A stretch of 64,000 bases of DNA from Escherichia coli (GTDB lineage: Bacteria; Pseudomonadota; Gammaproteobacteria; Enterobacterales; Enterobacteriaceae). Shown here one piece after another: positions 7,841-59,375 of the stretch (its first letter is position 1; every line of letters begins with the position of its first letter). The position numbers were made by a program, and so were the translations under genes. The notes beneath the pieces were generated by a model that saw nothing but the letters and a program-made list of their open reading frames with translations, was not told where the DNA came from and did not search any database. Location of the stretch: assembly GCF_003019035.1 (NCBI RefSeq), contig NZ_CP027447.1. One strand, 5' to 3'.

Positions 7841-7975
7841 AGTTTGCTCCTGCCATAACGTGAAGAAGCAATGACCTGGTGGTCCGTGACTTCCCTACGC
7901 TGGCATTATCCAGATCAGGTGATACGGGTATTTCTCAGCCTTTACGCAGAAGGGCACCCCGAGTCGTTTGGTTGC
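7841..7975 (-). promoter_or_regulatory. thiM 5' leader containing TPP (THI-box) riboswitch
   Basis: Minus-strand leader reads ..GGGGUGCCCUUCUGCGU.AAGGCUGAGAAAUACCCGUAUCACCUGAUCUGGAUAAUGCCAGCGUAGGGAAGUCACGGACCACCAGGUCAUUGCUUCUUCACGUUAUGGCAGGAGCAAACUAUG, the well-known thiM TPP aptamer with CUGAGA box and SD-sequestering expression platform. Confidence 0.9.
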
Positions 7976-22842: not shown

Positions 22843-25800
22843 ATGGACAAGGAATTACCGTGGCTGGCGGATAACGCGCAACTGGAACTGAAATATAAAA
22901 AGGGTAAAACACCACTCAGCCATCGCAATTGGCCGGGTGAACCGGTGCCTGTTATCACTGAAAGCATCATCCAGACACTGGGTGATGAATTGCTACACAT
23001 TGCTGAGAAGAAAAAAAACATTGTCTGGCGTTATGATAATTTTTCACTGGAGTGGCAGTCCGCCATCACGCAGGCCATCAACTTGATCGGCGAACACAAA
23101 CCCTCAATCCCGGCCCGGACAATGGCGGCGCTAGCCTGTATCGCGCAAAATGATAGCCAACAGTTACTCGACGAAATCGTCCAACAAGAGGGACTGGAAT
23201 ATGCGACTGAAGTGGTGATTGCACGCCAGTTTATTGTACGGTGTTATGAGAGTGATCCTCTGGTAGTAACATTGCAGTATCAGAAGGAGGACTATGGCTA
23301 TGGCTATGGCTATGGCTATGGCTATGGCTATGGTTATCGCTCAGAAACCTATAACGAATTCGATCTCCGACTGCGTAAGCATCTCTCTCTGGCAGAGGAA
23401 AGCTGCTGGCAGCGTTGCGCCGACAAACTCATTGCCGCACTGCCAGGACTACCCCAAGTTCGCCGTCCTTTTATTGCACTCATCCTCCCGGAAAAACCAG
23501 AAATCGCCAATGAGTTGGTAGGCCTTGAATGCCCGTGGACTCATTTTCATTCTAAGGAGTGGTTAAAAGTTGTTGCTACTGACCACAGGGCAGTGGGAAA
23601 ACTCGAACGCTACTGGAGCCAGGATATATTTAGCGATCGCGAAGCCAGCTACATGTCGCATGAAAACCACTTCGGCTACGCGGCCTGCGCCGCCCTTTTG
23701 CGCGAACAAGGAATTGCAGCCGTTCCACGCCTCGCGATGTATGCCCATAAAGAAGATTGCGGTAGCCTGCTGGTACAAATTAACCATCCGCAGGTCATCC
23801 GCACCCTGCTGTTAGTTGCTGATAAAAACAAACCCAGCCTGCAACGTGTGGCTAAATACAGTAAAAACTTCCCCCATGCGACGCTTGCCGCACTGGCAGA
23901 GCTTCTGGCGTTAAAAGAACCGCCTGCACGCCCTGGTTATCCAATCATCGAAGACAAAAAGCTGCCTGCACAGCAAAAAGCTCGAGATGAATACTGGCGT
24001 ACGCTGTTACAAACGCTGATGGCATCGCAGCCACAACTGGCAGAAGAGGTGATGCCGTGGTTAAGTACTCAAGCCCAGGCAGTGCTGAATAGTTATTTAT
24101 CGGCACCGCCCAAAACGGTTATTGATAGCACCGATAACATCCAAATGCCTGAAATCCTCGTTTCACCACCGTGGCGTAGTAAGAAAAAAATGACAGTTCC
24201 ACGTCTTGATTTGGCACCGTTCGAATTAACGCCGCAAGTTTACTGGCAACCAGGCGAACGAGAGAGGCTTGCCGCCACTGAGTCTGCCCGTTATTTCAGC
24301 ACGGAATCTCTTGCGGAACGCATGGAACAAAAAAGTGGACGAGTTGTATTACAGGAGCTGGGTTTTGGAGATGATGTATGGCTGTTTTTGAATTATATAC
24401 TCCCCGGAAAACTGGATGCTGCACGCAATTCACTCATTGTTCAGTGGCATTACTACCCAGGGCGGGTTGAAGAGATCATGAATGGCTGGAGCTCCCCGGA
24501 AGCTCAATTAGCAGAACAGGCGCTTCGCAACGGTCACGTAGAAGTGTTAATTAACATATGGGAAAATGACAGCTACTCACGCTATCGTCGGGAAAAGAGT
24601 ATCTGGAACCTGTATTTATTGGCGCAGTTGCCGCGTGAGATGGCTTTGACTTTCTGGCTACGTATCAATGAGAAAAAGCATCTGTCTGCGGGTGAGGACT
24701 ATTATCTCAGTATCTTCGGATTGGATGCTCTACCAGGTCTGCTGTTGGCTTTTTCACATCGTCCAAAAGAAACATTTCCATTAATTTTAAATTTCGGCGC
24801 AACAGAACTGGCCCTGCCCGTTGCCCGCGTCTGGCGACGTTTCGCGGCGCAGCGTGATCTGGCTCGCCAGTGGATTTTACATTGGCCGGAACATACAGCT
24901 ACTGCACTTATCCCTCTTGTCTTCACCAAATCCAGCGATAATAGCGAAGCTGCATTACTTGCCCTGCGTTTACTTTACGAACAGGGACATGGCGAGTTAC
25001 TGCAAACCGTGGCAAACCGCTGGCAGCGTACAGATGTGTGGCCTGCCCTGGAGCAATTACTTAAACAGAGTCCAATAGAGATTTACCCGACACGCATTCC
25101 AAAAGCCCCTGATTTCTGGCAGCCGGCAATGTGGTCCAGGCCGCGCCTTATCACGAATAATCAACCTGTTACCGATGACGCTCTGGAAATTATCGGCGAA
25201 ATGCTGTGCTTTACCCAGGGCGGACGTTTTTATAGCGGACTGGAACAACTGAAAACTTTCTGCCAGCCGCAAACGCTGGCAGCTTTTGCCTGGGATCTCT
25301 TCACCGCGTGGCAACAAGCTGGTGCTACCGCAAAAGACAACTGGGCATTTCTGGCGTTAAGTCTCTTTGGCGACGAAAGCACGGCACGGGATCTGACGAC
25401 ACAGATCCTTGCCTGGCCACAAGAGGGCAAATCTGCCCGTGCTGTCAGTGGTCTGAATATACTTACTCAGATGAATAATGATATGGCACTGATACAGCTG
25501 CATCATATATCGCAACGGGCGAAATCCCGCCCCTTACGTGATAACGCGGCGGAATTTCTTCAGGTGGTCGCAGAAAATCGTGGGCTAAGCCAGGAACAGT
25601 TAGCGGACAGATTAGTCCCAACACTGGGTCTTGATGATCCGCAGGCGTTGAGTTTTGATTTTGGTCCCCGGCAGTTTACCGTTCGCTTTGATGAAAACCT
25701 TAACCCGGTTATCTTTGATCAGCAAAACGTTCGCCAGAAAAGCGTTCCCCGGTTGCGCGCCGATGACGATCAACTGAAAGCGCCCGAGGCACTGGCCCGA

Positions 25801-27268: not shown

Positions 27269-27352
27269 GTTGGAACACGATGTTGCACAGGCCGTGGTGT
27301 TAGGCCTGAAAGTAGTAAATAAAAGAACCTGCCTCACCAGCAGGTTTTTTTA
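27269..27352 (+). ncRNA. orzO: Candidate antitoxin sRNA (OrzO-like), ~80 nt, divergent from the toxin gene
   Basis: Starts ~7 nt after TATAAT; 5' seed GTTGGAACACGATGTTGCAC (27269-27288) is 19/20 identical to 27103-27122, so it is complementary to the toxin mRNA leader; internal hairpin CAGGCC..GGCCTG; ends in intrinsic terminator. Confidence 0.55.
27326..27352 (+). terminator. Rho-independent terminator of the candidate sRNA
   Basis: AACCTGC-ctcacca-GCAGGTT stem-loop followed by TTTTTTT. Confidence 0.8.
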
Positions 27353-42349: not shown

Positions 42350-42497
42350 GATGCTTTCCTCAATCTTTTACTGTTGTTTTCAGCGAATTAAGAGAAAAGC
42401 ATAGTTGATAATGGCGGGGTTAGCCTGAGCGGAAGGAATCAGTTGCAGAATCAGATAAATACTTAAAGGGCGCAAACGTCGCGCCCTTGCTAAAGCA

Positions 42498-46711: not shown

Positions 46712-46737
46712 ACGGATGGCAGAGTATCGCCATCCGT
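46712..46737. terminator. Bidirectional terminator hairpin between convergent dld and pbpG
   Basis: ACGGATGGC-agagtatc-GCCATCCGT perfect 9-bp stem. Confidence 0.65.
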
Positions 46738-47677: not shown

Positions 47678-47850
47678 GATGAGCATTCAGATAGTGGTTC
47701 ACGCGCACGGGTTGCGCACCGCCGGAGTAAGGATTTACTGAGGCTAGCGACGCCATCATAACGAGCAAAAAGTGCGATCGTCAAAGAAGAATCGTGAGGA
47801 AATGCTGCATTGCTGACATTTACGCCAGCAATGCAGCGCAAAAGAACTTT

Positions 47851-48607: not shown

Positions 48608-49186
48608 ATGGATCTCAATACACTCATCTCACAATATGGTTATGCCGCGCTGGTTATCGGTAGCCTGGCGGAAGGTGAAACCGTGACTTTGCTGGGAGGC
48701 GTTGCGGCACATCAGGGGCTATTAAAGTTCCCGCTGGTGGTACTTTCTGTGGCGCTTGGCGGCATGATTGGCGACCAGGTGCTTTATCTGTGCGGGCGGC
48801 GGTTTGGCGGCAAGCTGTTACGCCGTTTCTCGAAACATCAGGATAAAATTGAGCGGGCGCAGAAACTTATCCAACGCCATCCGTATCTGTTTGTCATTGG
48901 TACGCGTTTTATGTATGGCTTTCGGGTCATTGGCCCGACGCTGATTGGTGCCAGCCAGCTGCCGCCGAAAATCTTTCTGCCGCTGAATATTCTCGGCGCA
49001 TTTGCCTGGTCGCTGATTTTTACCACTATCGGTTACGCTGGTGGGCAGGTGATTGCGCCGTGGTTGCACAATCTCGACCAGCATTTGAAGCACTGGGTCT
49101 GGTTGATTCTGGTCGTGGTTCTGGTGGTAGGCGTGCGCTGGTGGCTGAAACGGCGCGGGAAGAAAAAGCCGGATCATCAGGCGTAA
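48608..49186 (+). CDS. yohD: DedA-family inner-membrane protein, 192 aa
   Basis: Start at ATG 48608 (MDLNTLISQYGYAALVIGSLAEGE..); DedA-type sequence. Confidence 0.88.
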   Translation: MDLNTLISQYGYAALVIGSLAEGETVTLLGGVAAHQGLLKFPLVVLSVALGGMIGDQVLYLCGRRFGGKLLRRFSKHQDKIERAQKLIQRHPYLFVIGTRFMYGFRVIGPTLIGASQLPPKIFLPLNILGAFAWSLIFTTIGYAGGQVIAPWLHNLDQHLKHWVWLILVVVLVVGVRWWLKRRGKKKPDHQA

Positions 49187-49194
49187 AACCATTG

Positions 49195-49285
49195 CCCTGG
49201 ATAAGGTGTTCGCGCCGCATCCGACATCCGGTGCACCATGCCTGATGCGACGCTGGCGTGTCTTATCTGGCCTAACCCATTGAAA
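49195..49285. repeat. BIME: two REP units in inverted orientation, between convergent yohD and yohF
   Basis: ..GGATAAGGTGTTCGCGCCGCATCCGACATCCGG.. and ..GCCTGATGCGACGCTGGCGTGTCTTATCTGGCCTAAC.. match the E. coli REP consensus. Confidence 0.8.
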
Positions 49286-50119: not shown

Positions 50120-51556
50120 TCAGCGTTTGTAACCCCCGCCCAGCGCACCGGTGAGTTGAATGGAAGCATCCAGCCACTGTCCCTGCAAGAGCAGACCATT
50201 GGCCCGCTCACGCAGCGCGGGGATTCTGGCTTCGCTGACGCGGGAACCAGCAATGATGCCCGCGTTAAAGCGCGCCTGCGCAAGACCTACCACACGCAAG
50301 GCATCGTGCTCAATTTGCGCCTGATGCTGGTTTTTCTCCGCCAGTGTCTGAACCTGGCTGGCCGCCCGCGCCACGTCATTTACCGCTTCAACCACCGCTT
50401 TGTTGTAGCTGGCGATAGACAAGTTGCTTTCGGCTTTTGCAATATCGAGGTTGGCGTTAAGACGACCACTATCGAAAATGGGTAGCGTCAGGCCTGCCGT
50501 AACGCCCATTTGCTGCGCGGAATGACGGAACAGATCGCTTAAGTGCAACGCATCCTGTTGCAGGAAGGCCATCAGGTTGATGTCAGGATAAAATGCCGCT
50601 TTTGCCGCATCAATAGTGCTTAACGATGACTCAACGTACCAGTGCGCCGCCTGCAAATCTGCCCGCCGGGCCAGTAAGGAGTACCCCAGTTCATCAGGAA
50701 GCTGGCTTGCCACTTTCGGCAACGCGACCGGATTAAGCTTCAATGCCTTTGTCTGGTGATTTGTAAGTGCGCTTAACCGTGCCTCAATAATTTTCATTTT
50801 CCCCGCGACATCGTTGAGCTGCTGCCGGGTTTTGCTGGCATTAATATCGGTTTCCACACCTTCAACTGCAGAAGTAATCCCGTTCTGATATAGCTGGCGA
50901 TCGGTGGCGATAATGGTGTTCTGCTCTTTTTCGATTTGCTGTAAGACCGTGTTTAACGCCGCCTGGGTTTGCCACTCCCAGTACAGGCGGGCTACGCTGC
51001 CAGCCAGCAATTGGCGGGTTTGCTCGCGTTCCGCCGCCCGTGCTTTAACCGTACCGAGGCGAGCAGTAACCTCCGCCCGATTCTTTCCCCAGATATCGAG
51101 ATGCCAGCCCGCCGTTAAGCCAAAAGTACCGTTGGTGTACCACGGACCGGTCGTACCTGCGGCAGGATCGTTCAGAGCAAACGGCCCCATTAACCCTTCT
51201 GCAGACATTTTTTGCCGCTCCATATCCGCAGAAAAGTCGATCTGCGGACCATCCTGAGTGGCAACTGCCTTCGCCTGGGCTTCAGCCAGCTGAATGCGCT
51301 GTTCAGCCACCTGCATATCCGGTGCGTTCTGTAGTGCGTTATTAATTAATGAGGTGAGTTGATTATCGTGATACTCCAGCCACCATTGGCTGTCTGGCCA
51401 ACCATTTTTCAGCGCCGTGGGTAATGCGGTGTCAACTTGTGTCGCGGGTGTTTGCTGGCTTAACGCCTGGCGGGTTTCATGCATAGGCGCACACCCGGCC
51501 AGCATCAGTAACAGCGGAAAACAGGCGATGGCTGGATAAAAAGAATCACGATTCAT
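50120..51556 (-). CDS. mdtQ: Outer-membrane efflux lipoprotein (OMF/NodT family), intact ~478 aa
   Basis: Continuous ORF; start at ATG 51554-51556 gives signal peptide with lipobox (..FPLLLMLAGC); recalled as a pseudogene in K-12 but uninterrupted here. Confidence 0.85.
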   Translation of the reverse strand: MNRDSFYPAIACFPLLLMLAGCAPMHETRQALSQQTPATQVDTALPTALKNGWPDSQWWLEYHDNQLTSLINNALQNAPDMQVAEQRIQLAEAQAKAVATQDGPQIDFSADMERQKMSAEGLMGPFALNDPAAGTTGPWYTNGTFGLTAGWHLDIWGKNRAEVTARLGTVKARAAEREQTRQLLAGSVARLYWEWQTQAALNTVLQQIEKEQNTIIATDRQLYQNGITSAVEGVETDINASKTRQQLNDVAGKMKIIEARLSALTNHQTKALKLNPVALPKVASQLPDELGYSLLARRADLQAAHWYVESSLSTIDAAKAAFYPDINLMAFLQQDALHLSDLFRHSAQQMGVTAGLTLPIFDSGRLNANLDIAKAESNLSIASYNKAVVEAVNDVARAASQVQTLAEKNQHQAQIEHDALRVVGLAQARFNAGIIAGSRVSEARIPALRERANGLLLQGQWLDASIQLTGALGGGYKR

Positions 51557-54659: not shown

Positions 54660-56655
<1,996 letters not shown>

Positions 56656-59319: not shown

Positions 59320-59375
59320 CCGCGTCACATCCGGCATTTGGCACCGAATGCCGGATGCAGCGCATCCGGCAATAC
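59320..59375. repeat. REP-like paired hairpins between convergent preA and mglC
   Basis: CCGGCATT-tggcaccg-AATGCCGG and GCCGGATGC-agc-GCATCCGGC palindromes. Confidence 0.6.

Follow-up and report, generated by a model that had tools for sequence, protein, structure and literature searches.

REP and BIME elements at gene junctions in the fbaB–mglB region of an Escherichia coli chromosome

Gene layout and location of the repeats

The window, i.e., the whole 64,000 nt stretch of DNA that was analyzed, is E. coli chromosome and extends from fbaB to mglB. The gene order is fbaB, yegT ... yohC, yohD, yohF, mdtQ ... cdd, sanA ... preA, mglC, mglA, mglB. REP/BIME elements are short intergenic repeats that form hairpins and are built from palindromic units (PUs); they have been in the literature since the 1980s. 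Sequences of this kind are found here next to the 3' ends of fbaB, yohD, cdd and preA. The gene ends that border them are:

53–51, − strand, stop codon of fbaB
49186, + strand, end of yohD (stop codon 49184–49186)
49306, − strand, end of yohF
55544, + strand, end of cdd (stop codon 55542–55544)
55694, + strand, start of sanA
59316, + strand, end of preA (stop codon 59314–59316)
59387, − strand, end of mglC

Only the pairs yohD/yohF and preA/mglC are convergent; cdd/sanA and fbaB/gatY are co-directional. An earlier note on this DNA had assigned all four sites to convergent gene junctions, which is correct for the yohD and preA sites and not for the cdd and fbaB sites. PU-derived sequence is present at two of the eight convergent junctions counted within the window. 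REPs are split genome-wide into about 60% convergent and about 40% tandem (Harris et al. 2026 preprint), and the two plus two junctions found here are close to that ratio.

A 2.5 kb piece around the yohD element matches 5425 of 5426 complete E. coli genomes with 90–100% identity by megablast, and the match in strain SCU-301 is 100% identical. The yohD–yohF junction segment that carries the BIME and the 251 bp cdd–sanA junction segment are each present in 5417 of the 5426 genomes, the latter with every best match at least 95% identical. Together with the K-12 orthologs REP154 and REP156, this bears out the earlier description of the elements as typical of the E. coli core chromosome. As support for the taxonomic assignment they are weak, in that the same Y/Z1/Z2 consensus is abundant in Escherichia albertii, which also has RayT homologs and BIMEs at orthologous junctions. 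The PU families therefore mark Escherichia rather than E. coli; it is the megablast identity of 95–100% to E. coli genomes that assigns the species.

The window has additional features. The gene mdtQ (50120–51556) is annotated as intact in the closest relative of the window strain and is a pseudogene in K-12. Between yehK and yehL, in a gap with no annotation, the OrzO-P antitoxin RNA of Rfam is matched over its full length (27276–27351, + strand, 98.9 bits), which suggests a candidate zor/orz type I toxin-antitoxin locus. The coding region of yehI/DUF4132 has a hexanucleotide tandem repeat, (CTATGG) x 8.3, at 23292–23341; the tract is 30 bp (5 units) longer in the otherwise near-identical SCU-301 record. 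Two other RNA motifs are above the Rfam gathering threshold, a Peptidase-S11 motif upstream of pbpG (47682–47762, − strand) and a TPP riboswitch upstream of thiM (7875–7971, − strand).

PU families and their detection in the window

The PU families were rebuilt from data by scanning public genomes for both conserved ends of the PU with a gapped pattern. The training set consists of at least 120 loci (1.06 Mb), all from one E. albertii assembly, and the consensus sequences are derived from 193 exact-pattern PU copies in E. albertii. These copies form three length classes: Y, with the consensus TGCCGGATGCGGCGTnAACGCCTTATCCGGCCTAC, a 37 nt class, TGCCTGATGCGACGCTGgCGCGTCTTATCAGGCCTAC, and a 30 nt class, TGCCTGATGCGCTACGCTTATCAGGCCTAC. 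The 37 nt class is taken as Z2 because Y is paired with it in the BIME located upstream of K-12 rayT ('y REP + z2 iREP', Ton-Hoang et al., PMC3333891), and because it alternates with Y in K-12 REP325, which Harris et al. 2026 call alternating Z2 and Y.

Analysis of the window by nhmmer with the three E. albertii PU profiles shows exactly four significant PUs, i.e., the Z2 and Y units at yohD, the Y unit at cdd and the Y unit at positions 1–23. The next best match anywhere in the window (E = 0.02) is a cross-match of the cdd Y unit. There are no further PUs in the window beyond the sites flagged in the earlier note, and no significant unit of the Z1 (30 nt) class (best E = 0.083). The tail motif CTTATCMGGCCTAC, with up to 2 mismatches, has 3 matches versus 0.40 expected, all of which are within the flagged sites. 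Local alignment scores of 31–32 and 22 exceed the null maxima of 16–18 from dinucleotide shuffles. Shuffled or unrelated genomes are not matched by the PU profiles to the same degree. A 38 nt 'Stern' consensus with fixed spacing gives 0 matches in the window at up to 3 mismatches; the spacing used fits none of the three PU length classes.

The sequences are high-copy, dispersed and extragenic. All units are intergenic except for the 27–57 unit, whose head overlaps the fbaB stop codon, and the 101 bp yohD element is multi-copy and not single-copy, with a median of at least 40 places per E. coli genome (lowest 16). An imperfect palindrome with an internal mismatch is displayed by the folds of the cdd Y and yohD Z2 units. 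The GTAG/CTAC foot is retained in the fbaB pair only and is mutated at yohD and cdd, which are therefore degenerate members and not canonical RayT substrates. The flagged sequences belong, with near certainty, to the Escherichia REP/PU family, whose Y, Z1 and Z2 units are assembled into BIMEs. The elements are already catalogued and offer no novelty; two of the loci carry K-12 REP numbers, REP154 and REP156 being the K-12 names at the orthologous spots (preprint supplement).

The earlier note had listed REP-like palindromes at the four sites, and these are present at coordinates close to those given there, except that the preA sequence fails the consensus search (E 0.15–1.3) and the 27–57 unit is not significant by profile (nhmmer E = 9.2). 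The boundaries change from 1–48 to 1–23 plus 27–57 at fbaB, from 49195–49285 to 49191–49276 at yohD, from 55546–55590 to 55551–55585 at cdd and from 59320–59375 to 59326–59375 at preA. As REP/BIME elements, three of the sites are far beyond chance, and preA can be kept by descent only, as a degraded remnant.

The yohD–yohF element

The element at positions 49191–49276 occupies most of the 119 nt gap between the convergent genes yohD and yohF. It consists of a degenerate inverted Y PU, an S-type linker and a Z2 PU:

49191–49226, − strand, degenerate Y PU; nhmmer E = 9.5e-8 over 49199–49226, 29/35 identical to the Y consensus with one indel
49227–49238, no strand, S-type linker TCCGGTGCACCA, 12 nt, between the two PU heads
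49239–49276, + strand, Z2 PU TGCCTGATGCGACGCTGGCGTGTCTTATCTGGCCTAAC; nhmmer E = 1.7e-11 over 49239–49274, 35/37 identical to the consensus

The Y unit begins 4 nt past the yohD stop codon and the Z2 unit ends 29 nt short of the yohF stop. On the − strand the Y unit reads TGTCGGATGCGGCGCGAACACCTTATCCAGGGCAAT; on the + strand its orientation is that of a 'REP', and the GTAG foot has become ATTG. The foot of the Z2 unit is disrupted as well, from CTAC to CTAAC (GTAG to GTTAG). A spacing of 12 nt is the second commonest between head-to-head Y and 37 nt class units in E. albertii (16 of 62). The element is a single unit of the BIME-2 type and the ortholog of K-12 REP154. Assignment to BIME-1 was rejected: BIME-1 needs a 30 nt Z1 unit and a linker of about 35 nt, and in the window no Z1 unit reaches significance and no pair has such a linker. 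There is no tandem array with s/l/r outer motifs at yohD–yohF, and every allele examined has a single unit.

Secondary structure modeling shows that the Z2 unit forms an RNA hairpin of -14.9 kcal/mol (z = -3.5). The Y unit gives only a weak hairpin of -10.4 kcal/mol, no better than shuffled sequences (z = -0.23). Pairing of Y with Z2 is possible as well, and the BIME as a whole is only marginally more stable than shuffled sequences (z about -1.65). No U-tract follows the BIME on either strand; a terminator scan places a weak hairpin with a T-rich tail directly after yohF (49306–49291).

By length, alleles of the junction are mainly of a 301 bp type (the window) or a 311 bp type (K-12). Alleles at least 95% identical to that of the window are found in about 8% of genomes, and the Z2 unit of the window is identical across three otherwise diverged alleles. 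In E. coli MRE162 an IS1 is inserted inside the 12 nt linker (locus L125, 3133–3900, orthologous to window position 49231), together with a loss of yohF and mdtQ that extends to yohP, which illustrates how a BIME can be the site of an IS-mediated rearrangement.

The last codons of yohD, GCCGGATCATCAGGCG (49173–49183), represent a small near-palindrome that resembles a PU head, and CATCAGGC (49175–49182) is exactly complementary to the Z2 head at 49240–49247, 57 nt downstream. The near-palindrome could be due to chance, or it could be an older PU remnant that was absorbed into the coding end. An E. albertii locus (L026, whose position 1 is orthologous to window position 49160) stops 25 nt before the yohD stop codon, which may be an assembly break at a repeat.

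The cdd and fbaB sites

The cdd–sanA junction has one PU and one separate hairpin:

55551–55585, + strand, single Y PU in the cdd 3' UTR; nhmmer E = 7e-12 over 55551–55581, 33/35 identical
55612–55634, + strand, separate hairpin CGGCAAAC-A-GTTTGCCG followed by TTTCTT, from the fold

The Y unit is 6 nt past the cdd stop codon, and its CTAC foot is mutated to TTGC (GTAG to GCAA). It is highly stable thermodynamically, with a hairpin of -24.2 kcal/mol (z = -5.1). Two different PUs are at the same spot in E. albertii. The hairpin at 55612–55634 is 26 nt downstream of the PU and is conserved in K-12 and E. albertii. It looks like the cdd intrinsic terminator. The hairpin is not a REP; it is absent from the list of a simple terminator scan, and the call is based on the fold. 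The presence of this terminator-like hairpin downstream of the PU places the PU inside the cdd 3' UTR.

At fbaB the sequences are at the edge of the window:

1–23, + strand, Y PU, 3' two-thirds; nhmmer E = 1.1e-4, model positions 13–35, cut by the window start
27–57, − strand, degenerate PU-like remnant; GTAG at 27–30, head TGCCTGATACG at 57–47

The Y unit has an intact CTAC, and the full copy in SCU-301 is 31/35 identical. The fbaB stop codon, TGA (53–51), is inside the head of the 27–57 unit. This unit is 23/30 identical to z1, with gaps, and a shorter version of it is found in E. albertii. The pair keeps CTAC-ggg-GTAG on the + strand; read along fbaB, it is CTAC-ccc-GTAG and then the inverted Y unit. 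Past the edge of the window, the fbaB BIME is followed by a strong hairpin with a run of eight Ts and then by gatY in the same direction. Alleles of fbaB–gatY that are about 80 bp longer are common.

The preA–mglC site

The preA element is 9 nt past the preA stop codon, in a preA–mglC gap that is 70 nt in the window:

59326–59375, no strand, REP-derived remnant in three pieces, with sub-significant PU head matches
59326–59336, piece 1, inverted PU head-end fragment CACATCCGGCA
59337–59348, piece 2, S-like 12 nt linker
59349–59375, piece 3, miniature perfect palindrome TGCCGGATGC-AGC-GCATCCGGCA-ATAC

The PU match at this site is limited to a head of 10–16 nt (local score < 14). The element has no GTAG and no internal stem mismatch; the mini-palindrome is perfect and thus without the conserved mismatch of the stem. 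Two mutually exclusive strong hairpins can form, with -28.7 and -18.4 kcal/mol. The remnant has orthologs in K-12 (REP156) and in E. albertii (a BIME). Judged by position, it is a shrunken allele of REP156, a REP-derived remnant and not a canonical REP.

The short allele, which is that of the window, is present in 2552 genomes, about 47% of E. coli; the long allele, which is the K-12 form (Y, inverted Z2, Y), is present in 2876. Further forms are a one-unit form and an E. albertii form. Differences between the alleles amount to entire repeat units or to deletions with short direct repeats at their ends, and the mid-length allele represents the simple loss of one repeat unit.

The mini-palindrome, GCCGGATGC-N3-GCATCCGGC (59349–59371), is derived from a REP and has a low copy number (median of 2 places per genome). 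Similar copies are near phoE in E. coli and in E. albertii (locus L106, 3477–3497).

The osmF–bglX and dld–pbpG junctions

The osmF–bglX gap of the window (42464–42472) is a clean empty site. In K-12 there is a 62 nt insert with a full Y unit (REP152), and in E. albertii a Y unit, a 35 nt linker and Z1. The 7 bp sequence AAAGGGC is in a single copy in the window and is duplicated around the insert in E. albertii. The K-12-like insert is absent from up to 588 genomes (11%).

The convergent gap between dld and pbpG (46712–46737) contains a strong 9 bp hairpin, ACGGATGGC-N8-GCCATCCGT, of -16.2 kcal/mol, with no match to any of the PU profiles. Its K-12 ortholog is REP153, which is listed among bidirectional terminators (preprint supplement). 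In E. albertii this junction has a Y/Z2 BIME array of about 466 bp. BIME-2 arrays thus exist at K-12 preA–mglC and at E. albertii dld–pbpG, and there are none in the window.

Several length alleles are present at preA–mglC, osmF–bglX, fbaB–gatY and yohD–yohF. Strains are known to differ in the number and content of BIMEs at a given locus (PMC3333891), and the same pattern is seen here. The window strain differs from K-12 in REP content at yohD–yohF, preA–mglC and osmF–bglX, and the natural alleles at these three junctions could serve for testing the current idea of local tuning by REPs in 3' UTRs.

Origin, mobility and possible function

The reading that best accounts for the observations, and that is very probably correct as a whole, is that these are REP/BIME units that were spread by RayT and are now immobile hairpins in 3' UTRs. 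According to the literature, the units would have spread in trans, as single-stranded DNA, by one chromosomal RayT/TnpA-REP transposase that is encoded elsewhere. The earlier statement that the window has no RAYT gene is confirmed: none is annotated, and in a tblastn search with K-12 RayT the best match in the window has E = 2.7, versus 1e-112 for the K-12 control and 1e-76 to 1e-81 for the E. albertii loci. This absence is expected and uninformative because E. coli has a single tnpA-REP gene at yafL–fhiA, which is thought to act in trans (PMC3333891). The yohD and cdd copies are fixed in the species and lack the GTAG foot that RayT needs, and are therefore most likely immobile fossils. BIME content at these junctions turns over by small deletions and by gain and loss of units, which accounts for the shrunken preA–mglC allele and the empty osmF–bglX site of the window strain.

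The elements begin 0–9 nt past a stop codon and would thus be transcribed as part of the 3' UTR. The gaps from stop codon to element are 4, 6 and 9 nt for yohD, cdd and preA, and the fbaB unit overlaps the stop codon. As 3' UTR hairpins they may dampen read-through, partly via Rho, and block exonucleases. For yohD and yohF, the BIME between them would act in both directions as an at most modest 3' UTR brake and barrier to exonucleases; the cdd unit would be a 3' UTR hairpin upstream of the true terminator, and the preA remnant a sequence that may keep the hairpin function without REP identity. This functional reading, drawn from other REPs or from in vitro data on K-12, has roughly even chances of being right. 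In K-12, regions of the yohD-sense strand that bind Rho in vitro, both in the presence and in the absence of NusG, overlap REP154, and one Rho-binding region ends 3 nt from REP156 (preprint supplement). REP325 is a partial Rho-dependent terminator and a stabilizer of upstream mRNA; its 2–4-hairpin fragments show no Rho dependence (Harris et al. 2026 preprint). The effects of REPs are context-dependent; the presence of a REP between two convergent genes correlates with elevated expression of the pair, and across the genome mRNA half-lives are not prolonged by terminal REPs (Harris et al. 2026 preprint). REPs less than 16 nt from a stop codon down-regulate translation, as reported second-hand in PMC12306157 from the original work of Liang et al. 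2015. The RepRanger supplements contain nothing on these genes.

The main rival to a function is that the sequences are REP-derived but now functionless, and persist as harmless short intergenic hairpins downstream of genes. Decay of the PUs is consistent with this, e.g., the yohD Y unit with 29/35 identities and a weak fold, the badly mutated Z2 of K-12 and the remnants at preA and fbaB, as is the division of preA–mglC into long and short alleles of about half each and the lack of a K-12-like REP152 insert at osmF–bglX in up to 11% of genomes. The missing genome-wide effect of REPs on mRNA half-life (Harris et al. 2026 preprint) points the same way. However, the cdd Y unit is nearly invariant in 5417 genomes and folds strongly, the yohD Z2 unit is unchanged in alleles that are otherwise diverged, K-12 REP154 binds Rho in vitro, and placement of REPs right after stop codons or 3' ends is strongly non-random genome-wide. 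Loss of all function is possible and deserves weight, but it is a tentative reading. Another proposal is that the preA mini-palindrome and the empty osmF–bglX site are footprints of BIME contraction in vivo that set lineage-specific expression 'dials' for preA/mglC and bglX/osmF, the mini-palindrome being a selected two-strand replacement hairpin and not debris; this is speculative and unlikely.

The BIMEs might also be still mobile, in the manner of REPINs, with RayT excising, copying and expanding them, so that the length polymorphisms are RayT footprints. Both fbaB units retain GTAG/CTAC, unit number is polymorphic at preA–mglC and fbaB–gatY, and RayT recombines BIMEs in vitro (PMC3333891). 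Against this, GTAG is mutated in the yohD and cdd units, the elements are at the same site in > 99% of genomes, the mid-length preA–mglC allele has simply lost one unit, and REPs are stable on plasmids (literature). The deletion end-points have short direct repeats (AAAGGGC; ACCACA), which fits replication slippage. Current mobility is for these reasons quite improbable. Less probable again is that the hairpins are ordinary Rho-independent, bidirectional terminators that merely resemble REPs, a reading suggested by GC-rich hairpins at gene 3' ends and by the listing of the nearby dld–pbpG hairpin (K-12 REP153) as a bidirectional terminator. It is very hard to reconcile with the significant homology of four units to a dispersed PU family, with the lack of a U-tract after any PU on either strand, and with the hairpin-plus-T-run terminators that cdd and fbaB have downstream of their PUs. 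RayT-spread REP/BIME units that are now immobile in 3' UTRs are thus the preferred interpretation. The elements matter little alone; their value is in correct annotation, i.e., the unit types, the exact boundaries, which junctions are convergent and which copies resemble RayT substrates.

Comparison with known systems

K-12 REP154 (yohD–yohF, 2226386–2226469) is at the same junction as the yohD element and has the same layout of Y, 12 nt linker and Z2. Both have identical flanks, and there is a single difference in the Y unit. The K-12 Z2 has about 8 substitutions and a 10 bp insert at the foot, whereas the window Z2, with 35/37 identities, is closer to the consensus. The heavily mutated K-12 Z2 with its insert argues for weak constraint. 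K-12 REP156 (preA–mglC, 2236535–2236684) is at the same junction as the preA remnant and shares with it the left edge, the inverted PU head-end fragment and the S-like linker. REP156 continues with Y, an inverted Z2, a second Y and a 57 nt right flank in a gap of 242 nt, whereas the window has a 70 nt gap and only the mini-palindrome.

The BIME-2 that flanks K-12 rayT (REPtron) and REP325 likewise have Y and a 37 nt Z2 head-to-head with an S linker of 11–12 nt. The linkers of the y-z2 BIMEs flanking K-12 rayT are 12 nt, as at yohD, and one of them is GTTGTGCACCAA. The REPtron and REP325 copies keep GTAG/CTAC and form tandem arrays (12 PUs in REP325), and REPtron adjoins the transposase gene; in contrast, there is only one unit at yohD, the feet of its two PUs are mutated, and RayT is not encoded nearby. 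RayT binds single-stranded REPs; binding and cleavage need GTAG and the stem mismatch, and cleavage occurs at the inverted partner and in linkers (PMC3333891). BIME-1 (Y, an L linker with an IHF site, and Z1) also pairs a Y with an inverted Z-type unit, but it needs the 30 nt Z1 and, on the CTAC side, a long linker of about 35 nt, an arrangement that is seen in E. albertii osmF–bglX and nowhere in the window.

The Pseudomonas REPINs (Bertels and Rainey, PMC3116915) resemble the yohD BIME in three respects: two inverted REPs are separated by a short spacer, the element is non-autonomous, and it is associated with a single-copy RAYT that acts in trans. The sequence family of the REPINs and the clade of their RAYT differ from those of the yohD BIME. 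The arms of the yohD BIME are of different PU types, Y and Z2, which are only about 81% complementary over 16 nt.
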